Part shown: positions 2,196 through 31,009 of the stretch, piece after piece
Layout of the letters: each line of letters begins with the position of its first letter
How positions within the stretch are numbered: position 1 is the first letter of the stretch
NCBI RefSeq assembly: GCF_008065095.1
Contig: NZ_CP042911.1
Location: forward strand, 2,700,001 to 2,732,000
Origin: Gemmata obscuriglobus
Lineage (GTDB): Bacteria; Planctomycetota; Planctomycetia; Gemmatales; Gemmataceae
DNA: 32,000 bases
Reading direction: 5' to 3'
Position numbers and translations under genes: made by a program
The notes under the pieces: generated by a model
Database searches by the model: none
The model's input: the letters and a program-made list of their open reading frames with translations, nothing else
Told to the model about the DNA's origin: nothing

Positions 2196-2953
2196 GACTG
2201 GGACCCGCGGGCAGGAGTGAGTGAGCGCTGATCTGGGTATTGTTGGAGATGGAGTGGGCAGTGGGTAGTGGGGGCGGAACGATCAGACAGAGAAGAGGGA
2301 CGGCCACAAAAAGCACCAAAGAAGAGGCAGCAGGCCGAGGCCCGAGAAATCGCCGCCCCGCTCCTGGTCTTCGACTGAAGCGAGAGGATCTTTCCGTGTT
2401 CCCTCACGCGCCACGGGCCGGGCAATCGGTCCCTCAGGTACTTCGCGTGGTAGCTCTGGGGTTCGCGCCGCGCCGGGTGGGCCGCCGGCCCGAGCCGCCT
2501 TCCGGAACGCCGTGCCGGCCGCACGCCGCCGCCACGGCACAAGTGGCATAATCAAAAAAGATTGCGCCGAACTCATTAGCAGCAATCGGAATCGACTTCG
2601 GTTACTCTCTGTGAGCCAGATCGTGCGCAAAGCACGCGCGTCGCGGGTCGCTCCGTACCAGCGAACCGAGATCGCCGCTAGCAGATGTCCGAACCCCGGA
2701 GATCCGCGCGACGGTGATCGGGGCCACGGTTGAATGAAAGGGGAAGGCAATTGAGGTGCGGCCGAGCGCGGCGCTCGGGGCCGTACTCCCGTTCGGGGTG
2801 AACGACGGGTTCGGCAAGGCAGCCCCAGGGGGGGGCCGGAGGTACGAGTTCACCCCACGTCTCGCACAAGTTTTTTTAGAAGCGTGCGAATTAGGCGCAG
2901 AACGGACGGCACTTTGCGGCTATGATGAAACTTCGCCCGTAAGCGGAGACCCG

Positions 2954-3217
2954 ATGCGCGTTCAAGAAGTTTGTCACGCCTGGGTGGTGTACCGGATGTC
3001 CCTGAACAAGGGCAAGGACACCGCGAATGTGGTGTGCGAGCAGCGGGAATGGTTAGCGATCGAGGCGGCCCAACCGGGCCTGCACACGCTCCTGCACTCG
3101 GGACTGAAGACCGAGCAAGAAGCCGAGCGGCTGGCGCGTGGCACGTCCGGCGACAACTACGCCAACCGGGGCGGCAAGAAGCCGGCCTACTCACCCGTTC
3201 GGAAGATGCCGCAGTAA
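2954..3217 (+). CDS. Small hypothetical protein (87 aa)
   Basis: ATG at 2954 is preceded by GGAG at 2944-2947. G/C-rich third codon positions match the neighbouring genes. The sequence MRVQEVCHAWVVYRMSLNKGKDTANVVCEQREWLAIEAAQPGLHTLLHSGLKTEQEAERLARG... looks protein-like. A hairpin plus T6 follows the stop. The upstream part of the listed 2756..3217 ORF (GAVLPFGVNDGFGKAAPGGGRR) looks non-coding. Confidence 0.55.
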   Translation: MRVQEVCHAWVVYRMSLNKGKDTANVVCEQREWLAIEAAQPGLHTLLHSGLKTEQEAERLARGTSGDNYANRGGKKPAYSPVRKMPQ

Positions 3218-3242
3218 GTCGTTCGTAACTGGCGCTACTTTC

Positions 3243-3290
3243 AACCCGTTGCTGTCGTGGCTCAAAGCTACTCGCAACGGGTCATTTTTT
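3243..3290 (+). terminator. Rho-independent terminator candidate after the small ORF
   Basis: A 9-bp stem, ACCCGTTGC (3244-3252) pairing with GCAACGGGT (3274-3282), is followed by CATTTTTT (T6 at 3285-3290). It lies 26 nt after the stop at 3217. The loop is long (21 nt). Confidence 0.5.
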
Positions 3291-3600
3291 CGTCCACTTC
3301 CTCGCAATCTGGCTTGAGCTGACTCCGACACGGGCGGATGAACCGGATCAAGACGATCGGCCTTCATTCCCGTTCATCCTGTCGATCCTGTCAAAACCTC
3401 CTTCGGCAAACGCAAGGCACGTGTGGGCCGGAACGAAGCTCTACCCGTTCGTCCATTCCGACACCAGTGCGGGCGAAAAGCCGCGCTTACCACCTGAACC
3501 AGACCCAAATTGGAAACAACAGCTTAATAATCAGTCCATTCGAAAAAAAAAACCATCCCACGCCCGTTCCCGAAGTGATTGTTCCACCTCTTGCTCGTGC

Positions 3601-3627
3601 GGCTGTGCGGCCCGCGGCCCCACAGCC
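3601..3627 (-). terminator. GC-rich hairpin downstream of the sigma-fusion gene (weak terminator candidate)
   Basis: GGCTGTG (3601-3607) pairs with CACAGCC (3621-3627), with an inner GGCC/GGCC pairing. It lies ~70-100 nt past the stop at 3699 on the minus strand and has no adjacent U-tract. A T10 run (A10 on the + strand, 3543-3552) lies further downstream. Confidence 0.3.
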
Positions 3628-3698
3628 GTTTGCCGCGCCGACCGCGTGACGATACCGCCAGGACGGCTCCCCCGCCCTGGCGCTTCGGAAAGCGCGAC

Positions 3699-6600
3699 TC
3701 ACGGTGCCTTCTTGAGCGCCTGCCCGAGTTTCTCTCGCTCGTCGGCCGCCAGTTTGGGGGCCGTGTCGGCTAGCACCCTGAGGAAATGCTCGGCCGACCT
3801 GGGTTCGGTCGGGAAGCCGATGTTGCCGTCCGGTCCGTTCCAGTTCGCGAGCATCTTGCCGTCCGCGTCGAGGACGGCGCACCACGGGATGCCGCCGCCC
3901 TCCTTGCCGCGGTAACGCTCCATCACTTCACGGCCGTGGGCGTACCGCCCGCTGTCGATGTCTACGAACACGAAGTGCGGTTCCAGAACGGCCCGGTGCT
4001 GCTCCAGGAAGCGGGACAGCAGCCGGCAAGGGCCGCACCACGACGCCCCCTCTTTCAGGAACACCCGTTTCCCCTCCGCTCGGGCCTGCGCTTGAGCCGC
4101 GGTGAGCAGCGCCTTCGCGTCCGGGCGCGTCCGGGTGTGTGCCGCCAGGAACGCCTGAATGTCCGCCGCCGCGGTCTTCGGGTCGTCCAGGGACGGGCAC
4201 TTCGCGGCGAGCACCTTTCCGTCGTCGCCCAGAACGATGAGCGCCGGCCACCGGGCGAGCTTCCGGTCGCGGTCGTACCCATCCCGGAACGCGGCGATCC
4301 CCGTGTTGTCCTCCACCGACACGACCACCCGCTCGAAATCGCCCAGCGCCGCCGAGACGGTCCGCTGCTTCTCGATCAGTTCGACCAGCGCCCGGGTCGG
4401 CGCCTCGCGGGGATCGCCGGCGACGAGCAGCACCCGTTGGTGATAGCGGTCGGCTTCGGTCCGGGCGGAAGCCACGCGCTTGGCCAGGTCGCCCCGCGGG
4501 GCGAAGAACCGGGCGACCTTCTCTTCCGGAGTCGGCGGGCGGTACGGCTTGGCGAGTTTCGTGTCGCCGACCGAGATCGTTTCCGCCTTCGTCGGCGTCA
4601 GAGTCGTCAGCCCCATCCAGGGGCCGCGGTCCGGGGTCTCCTCGTGGCTGAGGTGGTACTCCTCCCCGACCAGCATTCCAGTGCAGGTGTACCACCCGTC
4701 GCCGTCCGAGATTGCGACCCCGCCGTAAGCGACGTAGTACGGGGCGTTCGGTTGCTCGCTGGCTGGGATATGGACGCCGTACTTCACCCGCCCCCCGGCC
4801 ACGGGCTTGCCCTCGTGGTCGAGTAGACGCCCGCGGGCGGCGGCCAGTGGCCCGACGCGGACCGTGACCTTTTGCTGGTCGGCCGTGATCCGCACCAGGC
4901 CGGCCTGGGACTTGTCGGCCGACCGGGCGTACACGGCCGCCGGGACCGCGACCCGCTCGCCCGAGAACGACCCGTCGGCGGCCGTTGTCGCCTCGAACGG
5001 AATGCGGTCGGTGTGCCCCATGTCGGTAGAGTAGACCGCCGCCCCCGCGACCGGCCGCCCCCCGGCGTCCACCACCGTCCCGGCGAGGCGAGCCAGGTTC
5101 GGCCGGGTGAGGTGGAGGTCGGTCACCACTTCACGCTCGCGGCCCACGGTGATCTTGGTCGTCTTCACGACATGCGACTGCATGAGGTTGTAATTGCCCG
5201 GCCCGACGCAGAACCGGTAGTTGCCGTCGGCGTCTGTCTTCGCCGATCGGTGGAGGTACAGAAAATGGTGCTTCGTGTCGCCCGGCGCCCGCAACTCCTC
5301 GGGAAACTCCCCGCCCAACTCCTGGAGCGACAGATGCTCCCCGGCCGCGGGCTTCTTCCCGTCACCGACGGTCATCCGGCCGCGGAGGATCGTGCCCTGC
5401 GCGAGCCGGAAGTCGAGCCCGCCGACCGTGGCGCCCGCCCGTGCCACCACGCACGGGCGGCACGCCGCGGCCCACGTGTCGTTGACAACGCCCACCACGT
5501 ACGCCTCTTCCCCGTTGACGGTCATCTCATACGTGCCGTCGGGTCGGGTGGTCGTAGACTCGTGCCCGTTGTGGAACGCGGCCCCGGCTCCGCTCGCTTT
5601 TATCGCGATCCCGACCGCCGGCTGGCCGTCGGCCCCGATCACCCGCCCCGTCAGCCGTGCCTTGCGGATCATTCGCATCGTCCCGTCTGCGGCCGCCGCA
5701 CCCGGTTTCAGGCTGAACAGCTCAAAGTAGCTGTAATCGGGCGAGTAGGACATAAAGGGTATCCCCTGGTCCGTGTCGCCCACCGGTATCCAGTCGAACG
5801 TGGCCACCCCGGCCGCGTCCGTGACAGACTGCACGACTCCGTTGCCGCCGATGTTGGCGTGCTCCGTCTTGCCAGGCAATTGGATGTACCACGGTAGGAT
5901 CGTCACCCCCGCCACCGGTTTGCCGGCCCCGTCGACGGCCTTCACGCGGACCGTCCGCGCCCCCGACAGCGTCAGGGCGACCTCGTCCGGCAGTGGCTCG
6001 CGGTCCCGCCCGCGCTTCGTCTTCAGCGTGGTGACGTAGTCGAACCCGGCACCGTCTTTGAGCGCGAACACGAACGCGACATCGGCCCCTTCAGTGCCCG
6101 CGGGGTAGCGAACGGTTGCCGAGCCGTCGCCGATCGTTGTCGCCGTTGCCAGTGGTCCTAACCCGGCGGACACCAGGACGACCCGGGCGCCGGCGACGGG
6201 TTGCTTGGCCGCGTTCGTCACCCGGACCGTTGAGGCCCGGGCGGGCAGCAGGGTCACGCGCACGTCCCGGGCGTCTTTGAGGGCGTCGACGTGTTTTAAC
6301 CCCAACCGCCGGCCGTCCGGCGTTGCAGCAACCACGGTCGGCATGCTCCAGCGTGCAGAGTCCCGATCGGGCGGCAGCGGCAGGCGGAAGGCGCCGGTGC
6401 GGTCGGTAACGACAACCGGGTCGCTCGGTTCGGAGGAGATGAACCGGACCTCCGCCCCCTCCGCGCCGGCACCGGCCTCGTCCACCACCCGGCCGGTAAT
6501 CGCGAGCGGGCCGTCCGCCGCAACCGGCGCGAGCGGCTCGGCCTCCCGGGCCGATTCTGGCGCCGGCTCAGGAGCGTTCGCCGTGACCGGCGGGTTCATG

Positions 6601-7451
6601 TCGGGCCTCCACGCAGCCATGACGACCACGCCGGCAGAGACGAGGCAGACGGCCGCAACGGCCGCGACGGCCAGTCGCGTCTTGGTCAGGATCATGGATA
6701 CGGCCTTGAGACGGAGGGTGTGAACGGCACGGTCGCTTGTGGCAACGGCGCTCGCGACGACGGCACTGACGAGGGATTCGGGGACTGCGACCGCCGTCGA
6801 GCCCACCGCCGCCGCCAGGAGGCCGGTCGGGAGCGAGACGCCCCGTCGCAGGAGCTTGGCGTGGAGCCGGCTGCGGCCGCGCTCCAGACGGCCGCGGAGC
6901 ACATCGACGCCGACGCCGAGTTCCCGTGCGGCCTCGTCCCGGGTCATGCCGTCGAAGTAGCACAGCAAGAGGGGGAGCCGGAGGGCGTCCGGCAGCCGGT
7001 TCAGCTCCTCGTGCAGAACGTCGGCGACCTCCCGCACGGCCAGGTCGGGCGGTTCGGCCGCGGCGGGGCCGGTCCACTGACCCTCGATCCGTTCGCGCCG
7101 CGCGGCGTCCGCGCGGGTCCGCAGGGCCAGGCGGTGGGCGACGCTGTACAGCCACCCGCCCAGAGCCGGTTGCCGACGGATTCGATCGACCTCCCGGACG
7201 AGGGCCAAGAAGGCCGCCTGGAACACGTCCTCGGCGTCGGGCGACGCGCCGAGGACGTGCCGCGCGGCGGACAAGACCCGCGGCCCATGTTTGCGGACGA
7301 TCGCCTCGAATGCGGCCGGGTCGCGGCCCCGGCAGAAGCGGTCGAGCAGTTCCGCGTCGGGCCGCTCGTCGTCCGCACGGCGCAGTCCGTGGAAGAGTCT
7401 ACTGAGGGTGCGACGGGACATCGGGGCTCTCAGTTCGGTTCGAACGCTCAC
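3699..7451 (-). CDS. Giant fusion protein: ECF (sigma-70 family) sigma factor, TM helix, seven CarboxypepD_reg-like beta-sandwich repeats and two thioredoxin-like folds (the last with WCGPC)
   Basis: The ORF is 1250 aa with a GTG at 7451; an alternative ATG at 7421 gives MSRRTLSRLF.
- Sigma region 2: FEAIVRKHGPRVLSAARHVLG..DAEDVFQAAFLALV...WLYSVAHRLA.
- Sigma region 4: LPDALRLPLLLCYFDGMTRDEAARELGVGVDVLRGRLERGRSRL.
- One hydrophobic helix: LAVAAVAAVCLVSAGVVVMAAW (aa 259-281, nt 6609-6677).
- Seven repeats of the pattern 'GRVVDxxGxPVAGAxV....TDxxGxY/F', e.g. ITGRVVDEAGAGAEGAEV, LTGRVIGADGQPAVGIAI, LAGTVVDAGGRPVAGAAV, ARGRLLDHEGKPVAGGRV.
- C-terminal FLKEGASWCGPCRLL, with WCGPC encoded by the rc of 4026-4040. 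Confidence 0.85.
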   Translation of the reverse strand: MSVRTELRAPMSRRTLSRLFHGLRRADDERPDAELLDRFCRGRDPAAFEAIVRKHGPRVLSAARHVLGASPDAEDVFQAAFLALVREVDRIRRQPALGGWLYSVAHRLALRTRADAARRERIEGQWTGPAAAEPPDLAVREVADVLHEELNRLPDALRLPLLLCYFDGMTRDEAARELGVGVDVLRGRLERGRSRLHAKLLRRGVSLPTGLLAAAVGSTAVAVPESLVSAVVASAVATSDRAVHTLRLKAVSMILTKTRLAVAAVAAVCLVSAGVVVMAAWRPDMNPPVTANAPEPAPESAREAEPLAPVAADGPLAITGRVVDEAGAGAEGAEVRFISSEPSDPVVVTDRTGAFRLPLPPDRDSARWSMPTVVAATPDGRRLGLKHVDALKDARDVRVTLLPARASTVRVTNAAKQPVAGARVVLVSAGLGPLATATTIGDGSATVRYPAGTEGADVAFVFALKDGAGFDYVTTLKTKRGRDREPLPDEVALTLSGARTVRVKAVDGAGKPVAGVTILPWYIQLPGKTEHANIGGNGVVQSVTDAAGVATFDWIPVGDTDQGIPFMSYSPDYSYFELFSLKPGAAAADGTMRMIRKARLTGRVIGADGQPAVGIAIKASGAGAAFHNGHESTTTRPDGTYEMTVNGEEAYVVGVVNDTWAAACRPCVVARAGATVGGLDFRLAQGTILRGRMTVGDGKKPAAGEHLSLQELGGEFPEELRAPGDTKHHFLYLHRSAKTDADGNYRFCVGPGNYNLMQSHVVKTTKITVGREREVVTDLHLTRPNLARLAGTVVDAGGRPVAGAAVYSTDMGHTDRIPFEATTAADGSFSGERVAVPAAVYARSADKSQAGLVRITADQQKVTVRVGPLAAARGRLLDHEGKPVAGGRVKYGVHIPASEQPNAPYYVAYGGVAISDGDGWYTCTGMLVGEEYHLSHEETPDRGPWMGLTTLTPTKAETISVGDTKLAKPYRPPTPEEKVARFFAPRGDLAKRVASARTEADRYHQRVLLVAGDPREAPTRALVELIEKQRTVSAALGDFERVVVSVEDNTGIAAFRDGYDRDRKLARWPALIVLGDDGKVLAAKCPSLDDPKTAAADIQAFLAAHTRTRPDAKALLTAAQAQARAEGKRVFLKEGASWCGPCRLLSRFLEQHRAVLEPHFVFVDIDSGRYAHGREVMERYRGKEGGGIPWCAVLDADGKMLANWNGPDGNIGFPTEPRSAEHFLRVLADTAPKLAADEREKLGQALKKAP

Positions 7452-7815
7452 CTAACTAGAGCAACGAGCCCCGCGGGACGACATGACAATTTCGGTGCCC
7501 CACGACATTTTGTTTCGCCCGGGCGGGCGCGCTCACGACCGAGTGACTTGAAACCCCGTAGATCCGGTCAACCTTTTCTGGAGCGATCCATTGAGCCCCC
7601 GTACCGCACGGCCCTATCTCGAGGTTTTTTGGCGGACAGCAAGACTGGAGGTCGCGCACGGGGATAACATCCGCACGGGCGTAAAATCAAACAAACAATC
7701 AGTCGATTTAAAGCCTAGTGCTCCGTCTACGCTAAGCTGTCGGGTTGCTGAGGCGGTAGTCACTGATACATGAACCCACCCGCGGTGTCGCTTTCTTGAC
7801 GAGCCGCGACCGCCA

Positions 7816-9082
7816 CAGTAGTTTCAAGGGGCTGGATATGCCGCATGGGAGTTCCTAAGTTCAAGGTTCTCAGGCACTTGAACGGGAAGCTCCCATGCGA
7901 CGCGGTTACTCTACGATCACCCCGGCGGTGGTCCATGCGTTGTCCCGGCGAACGTTGGCTCGGGCACTCGGTTGGACCGACTACAAGCAGTCGGTGACGC
8001 GCACCCAGTTGTTGGACCTGGTGCTGTTGGTCGCGGGCACCACCCGCACCCGGTTCGCGGTGGTCACCCGGTACTTCGGGTTCTCCCACCAGACCGCGCG
8101 ACCGGCGGTGCGCGCGAACCTGGGCTCCCGGGACCAGCTGACGGCCCGGCTGGTGGATGCGCTCCGCGGCGTGGCACGGTTCACCCGCCGGGACCGGACC
8201 CGCCGGTGGACGTGCGCCATCGACGTGCATTACGTGCCCTTTTACGGGGACCGCAGCACCCCGGGCATCATCGGCGGACCCAAGAAGGCCGGCACCTCAT
8301 TCTTCCATCTTCCATGCGTACGCCGCCCACGTTCTGATTAATAAGCGGCGGCGGCGGTACACCGTCGGGCTGATGAGCGTAACGAAGGGCGCCAAGCCAC
8401 ACCAGCAGGTGCAAACCCTTCTGGATCAAGTAGTTGCCCGCGGGCTCACGGTCCGCGGGGTGGTGCTCGACGCCGGGTTCGACAGCGGGGAAACGCTGCT
8501 GTTGCTGCAAGCACGGGATCTGAACGACACGGTGCCGATCCGCAAGAAGGGCAAAGGCACCAACCGCCGCAACGAGTGCGACACCCAACCGTCGGGCACC
8601 ATCACCACGATGGAATGGGTGACCGAGAAGACCCGTCAGGCGGTGTCCACCCGGGTGTTGGTGTGGGAGCGCACGGGCGAAGGGGCGGCCCGGGTGTACG
8701 CGTTCCGCGGGTGGGGCGATGCGACCGCCGTGTCCGAGGCGAACCGGGCTCGGCTGGGCCGCCGCCGGTACCGCGAGCGGTTCGGGATCGAGACCAGCTA
8801 TCGACAAAAGAATCAAGCCCGCGGGTGGACCACCCGCACCGACCCCGAGTACCGACTGCTGCTCGAAGGGGTGGCGTTGTTGTTGCGACAAGTATGGGTG
8901 TGCCTGACCCTCCGGATCGCACGCGCCCAGAACCGGAACCCGAACGCATGGGTGACCGAACTGCCGTTAGCCCAGATGCTCGACTGGCTCACACAACGGA
9001 TCCGCTCACGGTACCCACGCACGCGATGTATCACATTACCGCACAAAACACTTACAACCAGCGCAACCACTTGAAACTACTG
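7816..9082 (+). mobile_element. IS element (IS4-superfamily DDE; IS701/ISH3-like by size and short TSD), copy A, transposase inactivated
   Basis: The termini are CAGTAGTTTCAAG (7816-7828) and its complement CTTGAAACTACTG (9070-9082). It is flanked by the direct repeat GCCA (7812-7815 and 9083-9086) and is 1267 bp long. The transposase stop TGA (9072-9074) lies inside the right IR. Confidence 0.8.
7895..9074 (+). pseudogene. DDE transposase (IS4 superfamily) disrupted by a +1 frameshift
   Basis: Two overlapping ORFs (7895..8341 and 8157..9074) together align along the intact paralogue at 17163..18320. Shared catalytic landmarks are CAIDVHYVPFYG (D), VVLDAGFDSGE (D) and YRERFGIETSYRQKNQ (the Y-R-E-K signature). 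The frame changes at the tandem duplication CTTCCAT-CTTCCAT (8302-8315). Deleting one copy gives ...GTSFFHAYAAHVL, which is collinear with GTHTFHTYATACL in copy B. Confidence 0.85.
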
Positions 9083-9161
9083 GCCAGGGAGCGGCTCGTC
9101 AACAAAAGCGGCCGTATTACCGGGTACGCGTATTAGTCGTGCCTGCGCCGCGGGCGCGGCG

Positions 9162-17071: not shown

Positions 17072-18328
17072 CAGTAGTTTCAAGTTGGGCGATTTATGAG
17101 TAGCGGGCCGCATGGGTTTACCGGTCAATGGTGGTTACCACGCCTCCACTGTCGGAGCCCCCATGCGACCCAAACGTCAGTCTATCCGAGCCACCCCGGC
17201 CCACGCCACCCGGCACCTCCGTCCGGTCCTGACCGACTGGCTCGGCCGTGCGGTCCAACTGCCCAAGCGTCGCCGCACCTGTACACCCGAGGTGGTGTGG
17301 CGGGTGGTGCTGTTCGCCGCGGCGTTCGCCCGCTCGGTGGCCGCGGCCTGTGCCGCGATCGCCGACGCCCCGTCCGGGCAGGCCATCTGGGATTGCTTGT
17401 ACCTCACGCTGCCCAAGCGGCGCCGCACCCTCGAGCGGCGGTTGCGGCCGGCCCTCCACGCCCCGCTCGGCAAGCGGAAGCGGGCGGCTCGGGTCGCGAT
17501 CGACTACCACCGGATCGGGTACTTCGGGACGCCGAACCGGGACACCACCCGGTCCAAGGGGGCCGGCGGCACCCACACGTTCCACACGTACGCCACCGCG
17601 TGCCTCGTCGGGGGACCGGACCGGTACACGCTCGGGTTGACGGCCGTGGGCGAGAAGGAGCCGATGACCGCGGTGCTCACCCGGCTGTTGGATCAGGTGA
17701 CGGCGGCACGGGTTACGGTCCGGGTCGCGCTGCTGGACAAGGCGTTCTTCTCGATCGCGGTGATGCGGTTGCTCCAGGCGCGGGGTGTGCCGTTCGTGAT
17801 CCCGGCCGTGGTCCGGGGCCGCAAGCCCCGGCCCGGGGTGAAGGGGGTCGGGTTGCGGGCCGTGCGGCGGCGGGGCGCGGGTCGATATGCGTACACCCAC
17901 GCGGATCGGGGCACCTCGGTGCGGGTGCACGTGGTGATCGCTCACAAGAGCTACCGGTACCGGCGGACCGGGGGCCGGCGGAGCAAGAAGTTACTGTACG
18001 CGGCGTGGCGGGTGAGCGGGAGCCCGGTGGCGATTCGGGACCTGTACCGGACCCGATTCGGGATCGAGAGCAGCTACCGCCAGTTGGGGCAGGTTCGGCC
18101 CCGGACCTCGACCACCGATGGGGTCGTGCGACTCCTGTGGGTGGCCGTCGGGCTGATCCTGCGTAACGCCTGGTTGTGGTCCCGCTCAGCCCGCGGCCTC
18201 GGGTGGACACTGGCGGCGGTATGCCTGATACTGTTGGCCGATGGGCTGGCACCTACAGATGGCGAAAATAAGTCCATTACTACTGCACGATCGGCCAACA
18301 AAACCAAGCCGCCAACTTGAAACTACTG
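17072..18328 (+). mobile_element. IS element (IS4-superfamily DDE; same terminal sequence as copy A), copy B, apparently intact
   Basis: There is a perfect 18-bp IR if the flanking C/G pair is included: CCAGTAGTTTCAAGTTGG (17071-17088) and CCAACTTGAAACTACTGG (18312-18329). It is flanked by GATTC (17067-17071) and GATTC (18329-18333). The TSD is therefore 5 bp with ends at CAGTAG...CTACTG, or 3 bp (ATT) if the C/G pair belongs to the IR. The transposase stop TGA (18318-18320) lies inside the right IR, as in copy A. Confidence 0.85.
17163..18320 (+). CDS. DDE transposase (IS4 superfamily), intact
   Basis: Catalytic landmarks are VAIDYHRIGYFG (D), ALLDKAFFS (D) and YRTRFGIESSYRQLGQ (Y-R-E signature). 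I prefer the start at MRPKRQS (ATG 17163) because 'cccATGCGAC' matches the start context of copy A (7895). The track start at 17112 is the alternative. Confidence 0.85.
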   Translation: MRPKRQSIRATPAHATRHLRPVLTDWLGRAVQLPKRRRTCTPEVVWRVVLFAAAFARSVAAACAAIADAPSGQAIWDCLYLTLPKRRRTLERRLRPALHAPLGKRKRAARVAIDYHRIGYFGTPNRDTTRSKGAGGTHTFHTYATACLVGGPDRYTLGLTAVGEKEPMTAVLTRLLDQVTAARVTVRVALLDKAFFSIAVMRLLQARGVPFVIPAVVRGRKPRPGVKGVGLRAVRRRGAGRYAYTHADRGTSVRVHVVIAHKSYRYRRTGGRRSKKLLYAAWRVSGSPVAIRDLYRTRFGIESSYRQLGQVRPRTSTTDGVVRLLWVAVGLILRNAWLWSRSARGLGWTLAAVCLILLADGLAPTDGENKSITTARSANKTKPPT

Positions 18329-24446: not shown

Positions 24447-24772
24447 GTCGGTGCCCCCGTTCGTAGTGCGAACACGCGTGTCGCGTAAGGTATTGCACTG
24501 TTGTGGAGCCCCAGAGTGAAGGCGGCGGGTGGCCGGTTCCGTGCCCGCCGGGCGTCCCGCCTCGCGCCGGCCGGTACGATCGTGCGCGCCGGAACGTGCC
24601 GGTGCCGACATTGCCGACCGGGCCGGTACGGCACGCACCACCGCGCGAACCGGTCCGAGCGGATGCGGTGCCATTTGGGAAGGTAGGGGCGTCGCGGCGG
24701 GGGGCCGGCGTGCGGGAGGTCGTGCCGCGACACCGCTTCGGTTCCGGTGCCCGGTGCGCTGTCATTCGTGAG

Positions 24773-26269
24773 GTGTATGTGGACCACCGTATCGTTTCGC
24801 GCGTGCTCGTTCCGCTCGCGTGTGTGAGCTTGCTGCTGCTGCTGACCGCCGCCGGGGCCGCGTGGTACGCCCGGCTCGCGCAGCAGCGGGTGTCGGCGAT
24901 GCTCAACAGCAACGTCGCCAGCGTTCGCGCCGCACGCGACCTTGAAAGCCGCGTGCGCGACGTGGACGCCGGGCTGGACCGGTTTCTCATCACCGGCGAC
25001 CGCCAGCACCTGGAAGCCGTCCGCCCGCTCCGGCAACTGACGCTGGACGCGCTGGCCGAGGCCGAGAGCGTCGCCTTCACGAAGGAAGAGCAGGCGCTCA
25101 TGCGGCGGGTTCGTGCCGGGTGTGAGCGACTGTTCGCGGAGTACGACCGGGTCTTTCACGGGCCGCCCGGCGCGGTGCCGCGGGCCGAACTGGCCGAGCT
25201 GGCCGCGATCCCCGAGAAAGAGATCCTTGAACCCGCCAAAGAGTACGCGCGGCTGAACGAGGAGGCGCTCGCGCAGTCCGGCCAGACGAGCGAGGAGATG
25301 ACCGGGCTCCTGACGGTCGTGTTCCTTGCGATCGGGGCGTGCGGGGCGGGCGGCGGGTTGCTCGGCGGGTGGCTGATCGCGACGGGGGTCCGCCGCGGCA
25401 TGCTGCGCACGGAGGAGCGGCTCCAGGGCACAGTTGTTCGGTTGAGCGCCGTGGTGCCGACCGGGGCGCATGCCGGGGACGCGGCGGAGCGGCTGGACGA
25501 GTCCGTCTCGGCCTTACTGGACCGCTTCCGCCAGGTGGAACGCGACGCGCTGCGGGCCGAACAACTGGCGTGGGTCGGGCAGATGGCCGCGGGCATTGCC
25601 CACGAGATCCGCAACCCGCTCATGGCCATCAAAATCCTCATCCAGACGGCGGCCGACCCGCTGGGCCTGTCGCCGTTCCGGGCGAAGGATCTGGCGGTCA
25701 TCGAGCGCGAAATCGGGCGCCTGGAGCACACCGTCACCGGGTTCCTGGACTTCGCCCGGCCGCCGCGCCCCGAGCGCCAGGCGACCGACCTCCGATCGCT
25801 CCTGGAGCAGGCGGTCGCGGGACTCCAGGCGCGCGCCGACCGTCAGAAGGTCGCGCTCGGGATCGAAGTGCCCGCCGAACCCGTCACCCTGTTGGTCGAC
25901 CCGAACCAGTTCGGCCAGGTGGTGTACAACTTGCTCTACAACGCCATTGACGCGCAGCCGGGCGGCGGGCGGGTCCGGATCTCGGTCGAAGCCGCAACGC
26001 GTGAAGGGGGGGGACCGGAACTGGTGCTACGAGTGGCGGACGAGGGCGCGGGCCTGCCGGCCGCCGTCGGCGAGCGGATCTTCGACCCGTTCGTCAGCAC
26101 CAAGGAGACCGGGCTGGGGTTGGGGCTGTCCATCTGCCGCCGGATCGTGGAGGCGCACGGGGGGACGATTCGGGCCGGTTCGCCGCCCGCGGGCGGGGCC
26201 GTTTTTACCGTGCGGCTGCCGCTGCTGGATGCACTCGAATCAGGCCCGGGAACCGGCACTCGCCCGTGA
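24773..26269 (+). CDS. Sensor histidine kinase (two TM helices, periplasmic helical sensor, HisKA plus HATPase_c)
   Basis: - H-box: QMAAGIAHEIRNPLMAIK.
- N-box: NLLYNAIDA.
- G-boxes: VADEGAGLP and TKETGLGLGLSICRRIVEAHGG.
- TM1: VLVPLACVSLLLLLTAAGAAWYA.
- TM2: LLTVVFLAIGACGAGGGLLGGWLIA.
I start it at GTG 24773 (or GTG 24779), just before TM1. The track start at 24503 runs through the divergent promoter region. Confidence 0.88.
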   Translation: MYVDHRIVSRVLVPLACVSLLLLLTAAGAAWYARLAQQRVSAMLNSNVASVRAARDLESRVRDVDAGLDRFLITGDRQHLEAVRPLRQLTLDALAEAESVAFTKEEQALMRRVRAGCERLFAEYDRVFHGPPGAVPRAELAELAAIPEKEILEPAKEYARLNEEALAQSGQTSEEMTGLLTVVFLAIGACGAGGGLLGGWLIATGVRRGMLRTEERLQGTVVRLSAVVPTGAHAGDAAERLDESVSALLDRFRQVERDALRAEQLAWVGQMAAGIAHEIRNPLMAIKILIQTAADPLGLSPFRAKDLAVIEREIGRLEHTVTGFLDFARPPRPERQATDLRSLLEQAVAGLQARADRQKVALGIEVPAEPVTLLVDPNQFGQVVYNLLYNAIDAQPGGGRVRISVEAATREGGGPELVLRVADEGAGLPAAVGERIFDPFVSTKETGLGLGLSICRRIVEAHGGTIRAGSPPAGGAVFTVRLPLLDALESGPGTGTRP

Positions 26270-26284
26270 TATGGAGACGAAGAC

Positions 26285-27712
26285 GTGGCCAATCTGCTCA
26301 TCGTCGACGACGAGGAGAGCCTGCTGTACTCGCTGGAGGCCGGGCTTTCGACCGACGACCTCGCGGTGAGCACCGCGACGACCGGGCGCGAGGGCGTCGC
26401 CGCCGTTCGCGCACAGACGCCGGACGCGGTCATTCTGGACGTGCGCCTGCCGGACATGACCGGCCTGGAGGTGTTCGATCAGATCCGGGCGCTGGACCCC
26501 CGGCTGCCGGTCGTGATGATCACCGCCTACGCGGCGGCCGATACGGCTATCGAAGCCGTCAAGCGCGGTGCCTTCGAGTACCTCCTCAAGCCGGTCGACT
26601 TGCACCGCCTGCGGGACACGGTCGCTCGCGCGATCGAGTTGCGGCGGATGCGGAGCGTGCCGGCGGTGATCGCCGGCGAGCCGGCGCCGCCGGACGCCGA
26701 CGAGGTGGTGGGCCGCAGCCCCGCCATGCAGGCGGTGTACAAGGCCATCGGCCTGCTCGCCCGGCAGGCCGTGCCCGTGTTGATTACGGGCGAGAGCGGG
26801 ACCGGAAAAGAGCTGATCGCCCGCACCCTGTACCAGCACTCGGAGCGGGCGGACCGGCCGCTGCTGGCGCTCGACTGCTCCGCCACTCCGGGGGCGGCGC
26901 TGGAAGAGGAGTTGTTCGGTCGCGAAACGAGTGCCGAGGGCGGCCGGGGTAAGATCGGGCGGTTCGAGCAGGCCGACGGCGGGACCGTTTACCTCGACGA
27001 GGTCGCCGACCTCAGCCCGTCCGCCCAGGCCAAGCTCCTCCGCGTCCTTCAGGAGCGGCGGTTCGACCGCGCGGGCGGTGGCGACGCGGTGGCGGCCGAC
27101 GTGCGCGTCATCGCGTCCACCGGCCAGAACCTGGCCGCTCTGGCGGCCGCTGGGCAGTTCCGGCACGATCTGCTCTATCGCCTCAACGGGTTCGTGATCG
27201 CGCTCCCGGCGCTCCGCGACCGCCCCGGCGACATCCCCCTACTCGCCGAGTACTTCTTACGGCAGTCGGCCCGGCGGTTGGGCAAGTCGTTCCACGCGGT
27301 CGCTCCAGAGGCGGTTCAGTTGCTCGAACAGCACCCCTGGGCCGGGAACGTCCGCGAATTGCAGAACGTGGTGCGGTTCGCGGCGATTCAGGCGACGGGC
27401 GAGGTCCTGACGCCGGACTGCCTACCGGCGGCCCTGCGCGGCGATCCCGGCGCGGGCAAACCGTCTGACGAGGTCGTGGACCTGGCCGGGGTCCGCCGTC
27501 TGGTCCGCGACCTCCTTGCGACCGGTTCGCTCGACATCTACCGCCGGGTCCTGTTAGAGGTCGAACGCGCGGTCATCGGCGACGTCCTGGATCACGTCGG
27601 TGGCAACCAGGTTCAGGCCAGCGAGCTGCTCGGCATCTCGCGGAACACGCTCCGATCGCGGCTCCAAGCGTTCGACCGCGCGGCCCGAAAGGCCGACCGG
27701 ACGGGGAGCTGA
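26285..27712 (+). CDS. NtrC-family response regulator (REC, AAA+ and Fis-type HTH domains) with a degenerate GAFTGA loop
   Basis: The GTG start lies 16 nt after the kinase stop.
- REC domain: MANLLIVDDEE...AVILDVRLPDMTG...KP.
- Walker A: GESGTGKE.
- Walker B: GGTVYLDEV.
- Other AAA+ motifs: RVIASTGQNL, FRHDLLYRLNG.
- C-terminal HTH: GNQVQASELLGISRNTLRSRL.
Where ELFGHEKGAFTGA is expected, the sequence reads ELFGRETSAEGGRGK. Confidence 0.9.
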   Translation: MANLLIVDDEESLLYSLEAGLSTDDLAVSTATTGREGVAAVRAQTPDAVILDVRLPDMTGLEVFDQIRALDPRLPVVMITAYAAADTAIEAVKRGAFEYLLKPVDLHRLRDTVARAIELRRMRSVPAVIAGEPAPPDADEVVGRSPAMQAVYKAIGLLARQAVPVLITGESGTGKELIARTLYQHSERADRPLLALDCSATPGAALEEELFGRETSAEGGRGKIGRFEQADGGTVYLDEVADLSPSAQAKLLRVLQERRFDRAGGGDAVAADVRVIASTGQNLAALAAAGQFRHDLLYRLNGFVIALPALRDRPGDIPLLAEYFLRQSARRLGKSFHAVAPEAVQLLEQHPWAGNVRELQNVVRFAAIQATGEVLTPDCLPAALRGDPGAGKPSDEVVDLAGVRRLVRDLLATGSLDIYRRVLLEVERAVIGDVLDHVGGNQVQASELLGISRNTLRSRLQAFDRAARKADRTGS

Positions 27713-28266: not shown

Positions 28267-29998
28267 GGAGGTCACGCCACGGTTTGCAGTAGGCCTTGCG
28301 GTCCTCGGGGCACGGGATAGGAAAAGCGCGGGGCGATTTCGCCGCAACTCTCGTGCGGGGCGAGTCATGAGCACACCGCGTTTCACGGCCGAGGAACTCG
28401 ACCGCCTTCGAGCACTGGCGGCGGAGTGGGGCAAAATCGTTTCCAAGCGGGCGTTCGGGGACGACGGGCCGGGATTGGACGTGGACTTCCGGACGATGGA
28501 GCAGATCGCCACCGCGGCGGCACAAGGGCTCACCGAAGGTGCCCTCCAGCAGATGCTCCACCAGCAGGCCCGGAAGGTGCCCGAACAGGTTCCGTGTCCG
28601 GTGTGTGGCGAGCCGTGCCCGACCCGACCACACACCCGCACCCTGGCGGCCCAAGGGGCCACGGTTCAACAGGCCGAACGGATCGCCCATTGTCCCGCCT
28701 GCCGGCGGGACTTTTTCCCCCCTGCGGCTGGCCCTCGGGCTGGATGAGCACGGGTACAGTTCCTCGGTCGTTCAACGCATCGTCACGGCCGCCGCCCGGT
28801 TCTCCTCGTTCCGGGATGCCGCCGAGGCGGTGCGGATGACCGGGGTCACGATCAGCGACAACCAGGTGCGCCGACTGGCTCACGAGGTCGGGCACGAGTT
28901 GATCGCGCGGCGCGATCGGAAGGCGGTCGAGCACCGGCGCCGCCAGTTAGAGCCGCGGACCGCGGTGGTGCCCGTGGCCGTGGTGGTCGAGGTCGATGGG
29001 GGGCGCATCCGCACCCGCGCCGCGGGCGCCGGCCCGGGTGTTCACGAGGCCCAGAACAAGGAGGACAAGGTGGCGTGCCTGGCCACCCTGAGTGGCCCCA
29101 CGTTCGCCACGGACCCGTGCCCCGAGCCGCCCGAGTCGTTCCGCTGCCCGCGCCGGGTGCGGCGCCTGGTGCAGCAGATGAAGGGCCCGGCGGGCGAGGT
29201 CGCGCCCCCGGAAACCGTGGACGAATCGACGCCCCCGGTGCCGGCCGGGGAACCCGAAGGGGCCGAGCGGTGGTCCCCGACGCGGTTGGTGCGGACGTGC
29301 GTGGCGAGCCTGGAGGGGAGTACCGCGTTCGGCCCGATGATGGCCGCCGAGGCCCAGGAGCGGCGCTTCTATGAGGCCCCGCGTCGGGCGTTCGTAGCCG
29401 ACGGTCAGGCGTACAACTGGACCATCTGGCGCGGGTACTTTGGTGCGTTCGAGCCGATCGTGGATTTCCTGCACGCGGTGTGTTACGTGTTCTCGTCGGC
29501 CGCGGCCGTGAGCCCCGATGAGGCGTCGGGTTGGTCCCAATACGTGGCCTGGATGCGCGCGTGCTGGCAGGGTCGCGTTGGAGAAGTGCTCACCGAACTG
29601 GATCAGTGGCAGGCGCGGCTGGGTGAGCCCCCACTGGGTGAGGCGGCGACGGCCGAGGAGCGCCGGGACCCGCGCCGGGTGGTGGCGCACGCGCGGACCT
29701 ACTTGGGGAACAATCGGGATCGCATGGCGTACCCGCGATACCGGCGCAACGGGCTACCGACGAGTAGCTTGGTCGAGTCACTGGTGGGCGAGATCAACGC
29801 CCGGGTGAAGAGCACACAGAAGCATTGGACCCGGCCCGACGGTGCCGAATCGATCCTGCAACTGCGGGCCGCCGTGCTGAGCCAAGACGACCGGCTCCCA
29901 CGGTTCTTCGCCGAACGGCCGGGCTCCTCGTTCCGCAAACGAGATACACTCTGCCACAAATCAGAGGGTGCCACAGCACAAACCGTGGCGTGACCTCC
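28267..29998 (+). mobile_element. ISKra4-family-like insertion sequence (1732 bp)
   Basis: It has perfect 20-bp terminal inverted repeats: GGAGGTCACGCCACGGTTTG (28267-28286) and CAAACCGTGGCGTGACCTCC (29979-29998). The target-site duplication is AGGTGAC (28260-28266 and 29999-30005), or 8 bp if the ambiguous C is included. The transposase stop (29991-29993) lies inside the right IR. Confidence 0.88.
28367..29993 (+). pseudogene. ISKra4-like transposase, split by a 1-nt frameshift in a T5C6 run
   Basis: The N-terminal part (frame of 28367) is MSTPRFTAEELDRL...CPVCGEPC...HCPACRRDFFP, a zinc-finger-like CxxC...CxxC. The continuation in the +1 frame is LRLALGLDEHGYSSSVVQRIV...VEVDGGRIRTR...AFVADGQAYNWTIW...DFLHAVCYV...YRRNGLPTSSLVESLVGEINARVKSTQKHWTRPDGAESILQLRAAVLS. 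This order of motifs is what I recall for ISKra4-family transposases. The frames switch at ctttttcccccct (28711-28723). Confidence 0.8.
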
Positions 29999-30803
29999 AG
30001 GTGACGGATGCGGGTCTGAAGGAACTGGCCGGGCTCACGAACCTCACCCAACTCATCCTGCTTGGTACGGCTGTAACGGACGTGGGGCTGGAGGAGTTGG
30101 CCCCGCTCAAGAACCTTAACACGCTCGACCTGGGCAAAACGAAGGTGACGGACGCGGGGCTGAAGGCGCTGGCCCCGCTTACGGGCCTCACCCGGCTCGC
30201 CCTGGGCGACACAGGCGTGACGGACGCGGGGCTGAAGGAGTTGGTGCCGTTCAAGAGCCTTAAGACCCTTTATCTGTTCTCTACCAAGGTGACGGACGCG
30301 GGGCTGAAGGAGCTGGGCCGGTTCAAGAATCTCACCGTCCTCGGCTTGGGCGGCACAGGTGTGACGGACGCAGGGCTGAGGGAGCTGGGCCGGTTCAAGA
30401 ACCTCACCGCCCTCGGCTTGAGCGGGACAGGTGTTACGGACGCGGGGCTGAAAGAGTTGGCCCCGCTCAAGAACCTCACCGAGCTCGGCCTGGGCGGCAC
30501 AGGTGTGGCGGACGTTGGGCTGAAGGAACTGGCCCCGTTCAAGAACCTCGCCAAGCTCGACCTGTACTCTACCAAGGTGACGGACGCGGGGCTAAAGGAG
30601 CTGGGTCTGCTCAAGAACCTCACCTTACTCGACCTCGGCCGTACGCAGGTGACGGACGACGGGTTGAGAGAACTGACCGGGCTCAAGGCCCTCACCACAC
30701 TCATTTTGATTGGCACGGGTGTAACGGACGCGGGGCTGAAAGAACTGGCCGGGCTCACGAACCTCACCCGGCTCAACCTGTACCGCACGAAGGTGACAGA
30801 CGC
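29999..30803 (+). repeat. 72-bp (24-codon) tandem LRR-coding repeat array, ~11 units
   Basis: The units recur as ...aaggtgacggacgcggggctgaaggagctggcc..ctcaagaacctcacc...ctc.. every 72 bp. They encode VTDAGLKELAxLKNLTxLxLxxTx. Two further units lie upstream of the IS (28118-28266). Confidence 0.9.
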
Positions 30804-31009
30804 AGGCTGGAAGGAACTGAAATCGGCGCTGCCAAAGTGCGAAATTAGCAAGTGACGAAGGGTACGCTCGCATCGAAGTCACGACGGCCCGCCGGACTTC
30901 TCCAGCGGACCGTTTGCGTTCATACGAACCCGCACTTCTGGTTCCCGGCACTCCGGTCCCGGGCGCCGTAAAACGCCCTTGAGGTCGTCACCTTCAGCGG
31001 GAGCAACCG

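Follow-up and report, generated by a model that had tools for sequence, protein, structure and literature searches.

The stretch of Gemmata obscuriglobus DNA that was analysed, 32,000 nucleotides in length and hereafter called the window, carries one long gene on its reverse strand. The mechanically called ORF, 3699–7451 (−), has 1250 codons and begins at a GTG at 7451, from which residues are numbered below. The true start is likely the ATG at 7421 (M11), which gives a product of 1240 aa; this ATG was preferred over the GTG because the orthologues begin at it. The protein consists, in order, of sigma2, sigma4, a 55-aa helical linker, a TM helix, a Pro/Ala linker, seven beta-sandwiches, a cysteine-less thioredoxin (Trx) fold and a Thioredoxin_7 domain with WCGPC. 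The features are as follows.

7456–7518 (−): conserved 5′ element, GCGAAACAAAATGTCG ... CCGAAATTGTCATGTCG-N12-CTCGTTGCTCTAG, 35–97 nt upstream of the ATG (conservation)
3699–7421 (−): complete CDS, 1240 aa, probable ATG start (M11) to stop (GC3, orthologue starts, exact protein match)
7098–7301 (−): ECF sigma region 2, aa 51–118, cytoplasmic (Pfam Sigma70_r2, E 3.4e-13; TIGR02937; AlphaFold2; dN/dS)
6864–7019 (−): ECF sigma region 4.2, aa 145–196, containing C164 (Pfam Sigma70_r4_2, E 4e-8)
6678–6854 (−): post-sigma4 juxtamembrane linker, aa 200–258 (family alignment, AlphaFold2, Pfam)
6609–6674 (−): single TM helix, aa 260–281, N-in/C-out (hydropathy, flank charges, relatives)
6507–6602 (−): Pro/Ala-rich disordered periplasmic linker, aa 284–315 (AlphaFold2 pLDDT <50; dN/dS)
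4557–6506 (−): seven CarboxypepD_reg/transthyretin-like beta-sandwiches, aa 316–965 (Pfam, own HMM, co-linear alignment)
Repeat units within this block (−): aa 317–404, 406–498, 500–595, 598–679, 688–784, 788–866 and 871–961 (delimited with own HMM)
4137–4529 (−): redox-inactive thioredoxin fold, aa ~975–1105 (AlphaFold2, tandem-Trx7 alignment, 3fk8 profile match)
3702–4136 (−): Thioredoxin_7 domain with canonical CxxC, aa 1106–1250 (PF13899, AlphaFold2, Foldseek, dN/dS)
4026–4040 (−): WCGPC active-site motif, W1138–C1142, N-terminus of helix alpha1 (sequence, orthologues, model)
3879–3890 (−): IPWC, aa 1188–1191 (alignment, AlphaFold2)

The original prediction had placed all these modules in one uninterrupted ORF, and this was borne out. 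GC3 was 0.78–0.94 across 25 of 25 bins of 50 codons, which points to a single coding frame along the whole ORF, and the 1240-aa product was identical to proteins recorded for G. obscuriglobus (WP_010033925.1, AWM39384.1, QEG27542.1 and VTS04603.1; 7 contigs), thus ruling out a frameshift artefact. That separate sigma and periplasmic-protein genes were fused by a sequencing or assembly frameshift, a reading for which the split of the MAG orthologue L004 over three frames could be cited, has next to no probability: it conflicts with the uniform GC3, with the recurrence of the same protein and with the unbroken orthologues of two Gemmata algarum strains, of Fimbriiglobus ruber and of several metagenomes, and it is already refuted by the independent assemblies. 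The CxxC was invariant in all co-linear orthologues (92, 70, 67, 47 and ~45% identity), and dN/dS was below 1 in all modules, being lowest in sigma (0.12–0.22) and Trx7 (0.20–0.27), indicating that the gene is real and that all its parts are functional.

No anti-sigma gene was found next to the gene, as had been noted before, or anywhere else in the window, and there was no synteny or conserved neighbour around it in four genomes. The 5′ element (~60 nt) was kept upstream of six orthologues although their neighbours are unrelated, and the motif was found upstream of orthologues only. It does not fit the sigma70 consensus and matches no Rfam family; as judged from its conservation, it probably serves the gene as its promoter or leader. 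The lack of a nearby anti-sigma gene and of synteny, together with the 5′ sequence that travels with the gene, suggests that the gene is a self-contained unit.

Both sigma regions scored above the Pfam cut-offs (Sigma70_r2, 49.6 bits against 24; Sigma70_r4_2, 33.2 bits against 25.7), as did TIGR02937 (sigma70-ECF, 61.1 bits against 42.9), and the protein had no match to the sigma r3 and r1 domains. With sigma2 and sigma4 only, each above its model threshold, the N-terminal part is an ECF (group 4) sigma-70 factor and complete, in agreement with what had been predicted. AlphaFold2 modelled both regions as helical with pLDDT >90. The sigma domain was the most tightly constrained module, and a sigma function is predicted for it.

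The sigma core was 40–52% identical to 89 relatives, WD40-ended ones included (P0044, P0069 and P0070 with 45–50% identity over the N-terminal 310 aa comprising sigma, linker and TM), and appears from these alignments to belong to a large Gemmataceae sigma-TM-ectodomain family resembling ECF01-Gob/ECF57. The Gemmataceae origin, a C-terminal extension of 1045 aa and the lack of a cognate anti-sigma factor are those of ECF01-Gob/ECF57. The TM-extended Gemmataceae ECFs (ECF01-Gob, Jogler et al. 2012; largely ECF57) have the same sigma-core family, are likewise known from G. obscuriglobus, and share with the present protein the invariant sigma4 Cys, the post-sigma4 motif, a TM near aa 250 and the absence of a cognate anti-sigma gene (PMC8999054, PMC7826278, PMC7671368). 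There are two differences. WD40-like repeats are prevalent in the ECF01-Gob/ECF57 extensions (PMC8999054), whereas Pfam found none in the present extension, which has seven beta-sandwiches and a pseudoTrx-Trx7 pair instead. Moreover, two conserved cysteines of ECF01-Gob/ECF57-type ECFs could connect sigma2 with sigma4 (PMC8999054). Cys occurs in the family at position 63 in 81%, at position 143 in 69% and at position 164 in 100% (90/90) of the members, whereas the present protein has Ala63, Ala143 and Cys164 and thus not the two cysteines for such a link.

The protein is an uncharacterised variant of a known planctomycete type, a sigma factor with a transmembrane extension, and not a new type of system. 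The earlier view of the architecture as uncharacterised therefore stands for this variant, but the architecture is not singular: the plan of sigma, TM and large ectodomain was common to 102 of the 119 relatives retrieved, and the literature already describes ECFs with variable fused extensions from Gemmata and Planctomycetes (PMC7671368, PMC7826278, PMC8999054). Pinto et al. argue that such extensions were captured fortuitously (PMC7671368), which speaks against the reading preferred below.

The juxtamembrane linker opens with the near-invariant family motif RRGVxLSxGLLAA (near-invariant residues R203, G204, L207, S208, G210, L211 and L212). AlphaFold2 predicted here one short helix and then a long helix continuous with the TM (pLDDT 47–84), not a helical bundle, and the model (pTM 0.44) did not confidently place the linker against the sigma domains. 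Pfam and NCBIfam gave no zf-HC2, RskA or FecR match between sigma4 and TM, and the HxxxCxxC motif was absent from the ~55 residues that separate them. Having no recognisable FecR, zf-HC2/ZAS or RskA domain in this position, the protein does not conform to the IutY type of sigma/anti-sigma hybrid (ECF48/52/53). The proposal of a one-component sigma/anti-sigma/sensor device thus held in part: the one-component reading fits the field's view of fused ECFs, whereas no anti-sigma domain is recognisable.

There was only one hydrophobic peak in the protein (aa 260–281; KD 19-mer maximum 2.68), and a peak was present at the equivalent place in 102 of the 119 relatives. The net charge of the flanks was +4 on the N-side and −1 on the C-side, i.e. 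N-in/C-out, which upheld both the predicted single helix and the topology reasoned from it. The Pro/Ala linker that follows had the highest dN/dS of all modules (about 0.55) and is a candidate site-1 cleavage region.

Like ToxR, CadC or TcpP, the sigma factor might never be cleaved but recruit RNA polymerase to promoters while still fixed in the membrane, which in Gemmata is heavily invaginated; the ectodomain would then modulate it by allostery or oligomerisation. The absence of an anti-sigma domain and of an obvious cleavage motif would agree with this, as would the ~55-aa helical spacer between sigma4 and the membrane and the family-wide near-invariance of the RRGVxLSxGLLAA motif, which suggests a conserved structural role. 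We nevertheless regard it as unlikely: action while membrane-anchored is not known for any sigma factor, and a 55-residue tether limits the reach to the chromosome. In the related Tuwongella immobilis, ECF sigma factors turned up in the detergent-soluble (membrane) fractions (PMC8567305), which speaks for action at the membrane, whereas truncation or proteolysis is what activates IutY and SCO4117, the fused sigma/TM proteins that have been characterised (PMC8999054).

An HMM built from the present protein's own repeats delimited the seven beta-sandwiches that had been predicted, and it found the same 7 units in the orthologues; independent Pfam models matched repeats 1–4, 6 and 7. CarboxypepD_reg had five stretches above the gathering cut-off (E 1e-25), and the Pfam matches in the block also included Big_1, DUF7382, bMG3 and DUF6795.

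Two thioredoxin-like folds, the first of them cysteine-less, had also been predicted, and both are confirmed by the AlphaFold2 model (pLDDT 91.6) and by their secreted tandem-Trx7 homologues. In the inactive fold, RVLLVAGDPREAP stands where the ancestral RVLLV.GGNWCGWC was, and WCGWC is retained in the first domain of the secreted tandem-Trx7 homologues. This fold was modelled with a beta-alpha-beta Trx topology (pLDDT >90), aligned to the tandem-Trx7 proteins P0145, P0148 and P0157, and had a profile match to PDB 3fk8 (E 2e-20). The second fold matched Thioredoxin_7 (PF13899) over aa 1116–1196 with 34.8 bits against a cut-off of 27. Its WCGPC motif lies exactly at the nucleotides first given for it; C1139 and C1142 were invariant in 6 orthologues and 34 module homologues and are located at the strand-to-helix junction in the model, as expected. 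P1189 appears in the model to occupy the Trx cis-Pro position directly before strand beta3. With the CxxC at the N-terminus of helix alpha1 and this Pro before beta3, the modelled domain conforms to the Trx fold and is predicted to be an active thiol-disulfide oxidoreductase module. C1191 is an extra Cys, invariant among the six sigma-fused proteins aligned; the free-standing homologues that were inspected have Y, F or V there. Foldseek matched the Trx region to PDI b′-a′, QSOX1 and 3fk8. PDI b′-a′ and QSOX1 Trx1-Trx2, in which one of the pair is redox-inactive, were the best matches over both domains, and the TM-scores of 0.25–0.36 and identities of 11–15% denote an architectural analogy, not membership.

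As judged from the alignments, the 935-aa ectodomain is a pre-existing cassette, mostly found as ~980-aa secreted proteins; this origin, with the use of the cassette also by BlaR1-type sensors, is what is new here. Residues ~310–1250 aligned end-to-end with secreted proteins (P0191, for example, whose repeat block by itself gave E 3e-100), and the repeat block aligned as a single HMMER domain (aa ~310–950 against 26–659 of P0191 and 489–1112 of P0233). The complete cassette of seven repeats and two Trx folds aligned end-to-end both with the secreted proteins of ~980 aa and with Peptidase_M56 (BlaR1) fusions of ~1400 aa, so that the homology to the secreted family is co-linear over the seven repeats and both Trx folds. 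The secreted (CarboxypepD_reg)7-pseudoTrx-Trx7 proteins, of which P0122 has the same inactive and active Trx pair, begin with a cleavable Sec signal peptide, whereas the present protein has sigma, linker and TM anchor instead. The Sec signal peptides of the free homologues are in line with a periplasmic ectodomain. Further relatives of the Trx part are the free tandem Trx7 proteins (~315 aa), whose CxxC is likewise canonical and which also have Pro in the cis-Pro position, and the solved structures PDB 3fk8, 2kuc, 3ira and 2ju5 (DsbH). The C-terminal module matched 2246 proteins at E≤1e-3.

The cassette is carried by at least five different sigma-core lineages, and in each of the three M56 fusions examined the gene immediately upstream encodes a Penicillinase_R/BlaI repressor. 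Other family members end in a second, unrelated Trx type (AhpC-TSA/Redoxin). P0007–P0009, close relatives in the same sigma lineage, are without repeats 6–7 and the Trx pair; that sigma core can therefore do without Trx. Since most cassette carriers are plain secreted proteins, the primary role may be enzymatic and not sensory; the ectodomain would then be a periplasmic oxidoreductase anchored by the TM, and the sigma head a by-product, arisen when a sigma core was duplicated and fortuitously inserted ahead of a secreted-protein gene, with little or no signalling coupling between the halves. The canonical CxxC and the Pro at the cis-Pro position of a mostly stand-alone secreted protein are compatible with this, as are the discordant histories of sigma cores and ectodomains, a discordance also reported by Pinto et al. 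(PMC7671368). However, the strongest constraint is on the sigma module, the fusion is kept across genera down to about 45–46% identity, and recruitment of the cassette by so many sigma lineages and by BlaI-paired BlaR1-type sensors is hard to explain without coupling; we thus consider a primarily enzymatic protein improbable.

The reading that we prefer, and to which we give about an even chance, is that the protein is a one-component ECF sigma factor, tethered to the membrane until regulated proteolysis sets it free, and that it responds to the thiol-redox or substrate state of the periplasm. The data show the architecture, with a cytoplasmic sigma2-sigma4 head, an N-in/C-out helix and a periplasmic copy of a co-opted secreted protein, in which a PDI-like pair of inactive and active (CxxC) Trx folds comes after the seven beta-sandwiches; the release and the redox input are inferred. 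Tethering alone would withhold sigma from RNA polymerase and DNA and make an anti-sigma domain unnecessary. As no such domain is present, release is argued from the tethering only, and plain membrane sequestration is a simpler inference than a sigma/anti-sigma hybrid. Activation would begin with a cut on the periplasmic side, in the disordered Pro/Ala linker or in the ectodomain, and proceed through RseP-type intramembrane cleavage, which would free a ~28 kDa sigma fragment to drive its own conserved promoter and a further regulon. Against this, neither a protease site nor a degron or cleavage product could be derived from the sequence. As input, the Trx ectodomain could report its redox state, its engagement in a mixed disulfide with a substrate, or its unfolding. 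In the membrane-bound ToxR, TcpP and CadC, periplasmic disulfides control stability or activity.

There is precedent for release in IutY, which is freed by Prc and RseP, and a further case in SCO4117 (PMC8999054, PMC7593790). IutY (Pseudomonas putida, an ECF243 sigma/anti-sigma hybrid) and SCO4117 (Streptomyces coelicolor, ECF52) likewise have sigma, TM and periplasmic parts in a single polypeptide, SCO4117 also having a Pro-rich linker ahead of a beta-rich carbohydrate-binding domain (PMC8999054, PMC7593790), and both are activated by removal of the C-terminal part. They differ from the present protein in that a recognisable anti-sigma domain, FecR-like or ZAS, separates sigma4 from the TM; they also belong to different phyla and sigma groups and carry no Trx module. 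The sensing would, by analogy, parallel that of BlaR1, where an enzyme-like domain is the sensor. BlaR1/MecR1 (M56) also have an enzyme-like extracytoplasmic sensor, and planctomycete M56 proteins hold the same cassette beside blaI-like genes; as output head, BlaR1/MecR1 have a zinc protease that targets a repressor and the present protein has a sigma factor, and the cytoplasmic parts are unrelated in sequence.

The ORF at window 3699-7451 (minus strand) had been predicted to be uninterrupted, with no frameshift joining the sigma part to the rest, and the results showed that it is a single genuine ORF. GC3 was 0.78-0.94 in each 50-codon bin, and this uniformity indicates that one frame is coding throughout. 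The mechanical ORF starts with GTG; the starts of the orthologues align with an ATG ten codons further in, at nt 7421, and the product from that ATG is a 1240-aa protein identical to Gemmata obscuriglobus WP_010033925.1. Since GC3 is uniform and the deposited protein matches exactly, an artefactual fusion of two genes by frameshift was ruled out. The same sequence is deposited as AWM39384.1, QEG27542.1 and VTS04603.1, is found on seven contigs, and is annotated as 'sigma-70 family RNA polymerase sigma factor', 'SigE' or 'Thioredoxin domain-containing protein'. A literature search found no paper that mentions WP_010033925.

Features of the protein (gene on the minus strand; residues numbered along the 1250-codon ORF, probable start ATG at residue 11) and of its upstream side.
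Residues 51-118: Sigma70_r2 (Pfam, above gathering threshold)
Residues 145-196: Sigma70_r4_2 (Pfam, above gathering threshold)
Residues 260-281: transmembrane (TM) helix, one strong hydrophobic peak
Residues 284-315: disordered Pro/Ala linker
Residues 317-404, 406-498, 500-595, 598-679, 688-784, 788-866 and 871-961: seven beta-sandwich repeats
Five stretches (E 1e-25): CarboxypepD_reg (Pfam, above gathering threshold)
Residues 1116-1196: Thioredoxin_7 (Pfam, above gathering threshold)
Window 7792-9106: IS element, ~370 bp upstream of the sigma gene ATG

The sigma head also passed the NCBIfam generic ECF model TIGR02937, and AlphaFold2 (90-sequence alignment) modelled sigma2 and sigma4 with pLDDT >90. 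After sigma4 it gave, at low confidence, a short helix and one long helix (residues ~225-280) continuing into the membrane segment. The residues flanking this segment have a net charge of +4 N-terminally and -1 C-terminally, which by the positive-inside rule places the sigma head in the cytoplasm and everything beyond residue 282 in the periplasm; the signal peptides of homologues show the same N-in/C-out topology. HMMs support the predicted sigma and thioredoxin domains, and the hydrophobic peak and flank charges support one TM segment with the thioredoxin side outside the cytoplasm. The original prediction had interpreted this arrangement as a one-component sigma/anti-sigma/sensor device, which is partly supported, the anti-sigma part lacking support: Pfam, NCBIfam and the AlphaFold2 fold revealed no anti-sigma domain in the linker, and an anti-sigma domain or partner is absent.

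Seven repeats, a cysteine-less first thioredoxin fold and a second one with WCGPC had likewise been predicted, and were confirmed by Pfam and the structure model. Independent Pfam models matched six of the seven repeats. The C-terminal ~280 residues were modelled as two thioredoxin folds (pLDDT 91.6, pTM 0.87), the first with zero cysteines and the second with WCGPC (nt 4026-4040) where the strand passes into the helix; Pro1189 lies immediately N-terminal to strand beta3, the place of the thioredoxin cis-Pro. A canonical thioredoxin active site is present. The top two-domain Foldseek matches of the pair were PDI b'-a', QSOX1 Trx1-Trx2 and ERp72, and the top single-domain matches 3fk8 and DsbH-like proteins. 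A third cysteine, C1191 (window 3879-3881, motif IPWC), lies two residues past Pro1189; the 6/6 aligned sigma-fused proteins have Cys at this position, and the inspected free-standing homologues have Y, F or V. C1191 may act as a resolving or regulatory thiol specific to the clade. CRPC in repeat 4 (residues 664-667) was rejected as a second redox site, as orthologues do not conserve the motif.

Co-linear orthologues of the same architecture were found in Gemmata algarum (92% identity), in Fimbriiglobus ruber (70%) and, at 67, 47 and 45%, in metagenomes. C1139, C1142 and C1191 are invariant across them, and the active site reads WCGPC, WCAPC, YCGWC or YCSWC. dN/dS was <1 in every module, with minima in sigma (0.12 vs G. 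algarum, 0.22 vs F. ruber) and in Trx7, the active thioredoxin fold (0.27 and 0.20, respectively). Purifying selection acts on all parts of the sigma-TM-ectodomain protein. It is conceivable that the protein is essentially enzymatic and its sigma head uncoupled, a reading that we consider unlikely. A 66%-identical orthologue in the metagenome-assembled genome SCN18_30_10_14_R2_B_71_11 (locus L004, 5385-9096) lies in three frames through two frameshifts, one between residues 254 and 313 and the other at the CxxC region (residues ~1130-1142), and the retrieved protein P0004 (911 aa) is its middle piece; the locus is either a decaying pseudogene or the result of assembly indels or poor assembly.

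The Gemmataceae family of the sigma core is very large, with 267 matches retrieved, mostly of ~950 aa, in which CarboxypepD_reg repeats come after sigma; in a few members the C-terminal end consists of WD40 repeats. A scan of genome contigs gave mostly paralogues among the matches listed. A hydrophobic peak near residue 250 was seen in 102 of 119 relatives, and the motif RRGVxLSxGLLAA, directly after sigma4, is almost invariant across the family. The studied protein retains C164 alone of the family-common cysteine positions 63, 143 and 164, so it cannot form the cysteine link between sigma2 and sigma4 that has been proposed for ECF57. Two family proteins from metagenomes, P0014 (1254 aa) and P0021 (1251 aa), end in an unrelated AhpC-TSA/Redoxin/Thioredoxin_8, TlpA-like fold after the beta-sandwich repeats, which is a second, independent sigma-to-periplasmic-thioredoxin combination.

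Many ECF sigma factors of G. obscuriglobus are fused to transmembrane extensions, and to our knowledge none of these has been studied mechanistically. The present protein is an instance of this known 'ECF01-Gob' phenomenon, a group that we link to ECF57. G. obscuriglobus is reported to encode >115 ECF sigma factors (PMC4598750); Marcos-Torres et al. described a similar WD40-extended group as ECF57 (PMC8999054), counted at 5.3 copies per planctomycete genome by Casas-Pastor et al. (PMC7826278). As Pinto et al. showed, planctomycete sigma cores duplicate and gain unrelated C-terminal extensions by 'fortuitous insertion', and whether extensions are sensors or accidental captures is still debated (PMC7671368). 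A sigma-TM-extension protein in Gemmata would not surprise a specialist. The 1240-aa protein is a catalogued, uncharacterised member of a published class, distinctive and informative in its ectodomain. The new element is the origin of that ectodomain as a pre-existing cassette.

A search with the C-terminal module against 1.84 billion representatives gave 2246 matches. Among the best 150 of these, only five had a sigma domain, and ~60 were proteins of ~980 aa in which a Sec signal peptide precedes the repeats and thioredoxin pair. Other homologues were ~315-aa secreted tandem Trx7 proteins with WCGWC kept in both domains; one ~315-aa tandem protein has a dead-plus-live pair like that of the studied protein. 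Several matches of ~1400 aa had a multi-TM N-terminus, and both of those checked with Pfam (P0233, P0309) were fusions to Peptidase_M56 (M56), the BlaR1-type sensor protease; P0171 and P0179 (~1200 aa) are M56-LRR-diTrx proteins. The seven-repeat block aligned as one co-linear unit to the secreted proteins (E 3e-100) and to the M56 fusions. Because the alignment is co-linear from end to end, the whole 935-aa ectodomain is a pre-existing cassette, before which sigma, linker and TM helix stand in place of the signal peptide. For 3/3 M56 fusions with fetched loci, the gene directly upstream encodes a Penicillinase_R (BlaI) repressor, and the cassette therefore acts as sensor domain in bona fide BlaI/BlaR1-type pairs. 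It has thus been reused on a second type of signalling head.

The cassette occurs in at least five sigma-core lineages. Between these lineages the sigma domains share 36-50% identity, which is no more than they share with paralogues bearing other ectodomains, and their ectodomains are 49-51% (two other lineages) or 36-37% (the remaining two) identical to that of the studied protein. A single origin of the sigma-Trx7 fusion was rejected, as the sigma cores of Trx7-bearing proteins were not monophyletic in an NJ tree. P0007-P0009 (776-785 aa), close kin in the studied protein's own sigma lineage, end after repeat 5. Six giant proteins (P0177, P0180, P0186, P0208, P0250 and P0260; 2000-4100 aa) contain the seven-repeat cassette once or twice internally together with the diTrx module, and some have N-terminal TM segments. 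At L087-L089 (1077-3554, minus strand), a gene for an 825-aa long-extension ECF sigma factor adjoins a blaI/M56-cassette operon divergently; the adjacency may be accidental, or sigma and BlaR1 signalling may be linked at this locus.

For the mechanism we propose a composite model, to which we give an even chance: the tether itself would hold sigma inactive, site-1 and RseP-type site-2 proteolysis would activate it, and the thiol or substrate state of the ectodomain would be the input. The enzyme-like sensor of BlaR1 parallels a thioredoxin ectodomain in this role. Periplasmic disulfides control ToxR, TcpP and CadC. The single-polypeptide protein IutY is activated by site-1 and RseP-type site-2 proteolysis, and the same two steps have been proposed for ECF52 (PMC8999054, PMC7593790). 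That sigma is never cleaved and acts while tethered seems to us improbable.

More speculatively, and with rather low expectation, the cassette may be a dedicated periplasmic thiol/disulfide-stress (or substrate) sensor that planctomycetes have swapped among TM output heads (five or more lineages of ECF sigma core, and BlaR1-type proteases that pair with BlaI repressors), the CxxC redox state or a trapped mixed disulfide gating proteolytic release in the sigma version. The clade-specific C1191 may help this gating. If so, covalent chemistry would be signalled directly to a sigma factor without an anti-sigma factor. The protein is a good test case: the chemical centre of its ectodomain, the CxxC, is defined and can be mutated, it can be compared with free secreted homologues, and its cassette is also the sensor of BlaI/BlaR1-type pairs. 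This sharing and the mutable CxxC make the long-standing question 'sensor or accident' directly testable. Redox- or substrate-gated release, if shown, would explain how anti-sigma-less membrane-tethered sigma factors work and would extend the ECF repertoire by a periplasmic thiol sensor; absence of coupling would favour the 'fortuitous fusion' view.

The sigma gene is followed downstream by an aconitase gene, and the window also holds a sugar-phosphate-isomerase-like TIM-barrel gene and an RND pump. As a route to the regulon, no neighbour was common to the window, G. algarum JC717, F. ruber and the metagenome contig. The 1.4 kb between the sigma and aconitase genes (window 2283-3698) has lower GC (~63%), and none of its ORFs shows convincing coding statistics or a Pfam match. 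The IS element is bounded by 43-nt inverted repeats (7792-7834 and 9064-9106; 79% complementary), and its DDE transposase is divided between two overlapping ORFs (7895-8341, 8157-9074), through either a frameshift or programmed slippage. Another DDE transposase gene lies at 17112-18320. Window 24503-27712 and 29968-31999 contain a histidine kinase and sigma54-dependent response regulator (NtrC-type) pair, then two leucine-rich-repeat proteins, their LRR type like that of P0171 and P0179.

A 5' sequence of ~60 nt (window 7456-7518) travels with the gene and is also preserved in front of six orthologues; when metagenome contigs were scanned with its exact degenerate pattern, only two orthologue loci matched. 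The element does not match the sigma70 consensus, Rfam gave no match anywhere in the window including this element, no sigma70-type promoter was found, and terminators were at chance level only. The spacing of its GGAAT-like and CGTT/TCTA-like blocks is outside the usual ECF -35/-10 spacing. The element is probably the gene's own promoter or leader, of ECF type and autoregulated. Many of the ~111 family paralogues (loci L001-L083) share an arrangement resembling a promoter, 40-100 nt ahead of the start codon, namely CGGAAA(A/T), 1-4 nt, TGTA/TGTC, ~19-21 nt, and CTCTA or CA(G/C)TAT, which may be an ECF promoter common to the family, with cross-talk possible, or else the local housekeeping promoter.
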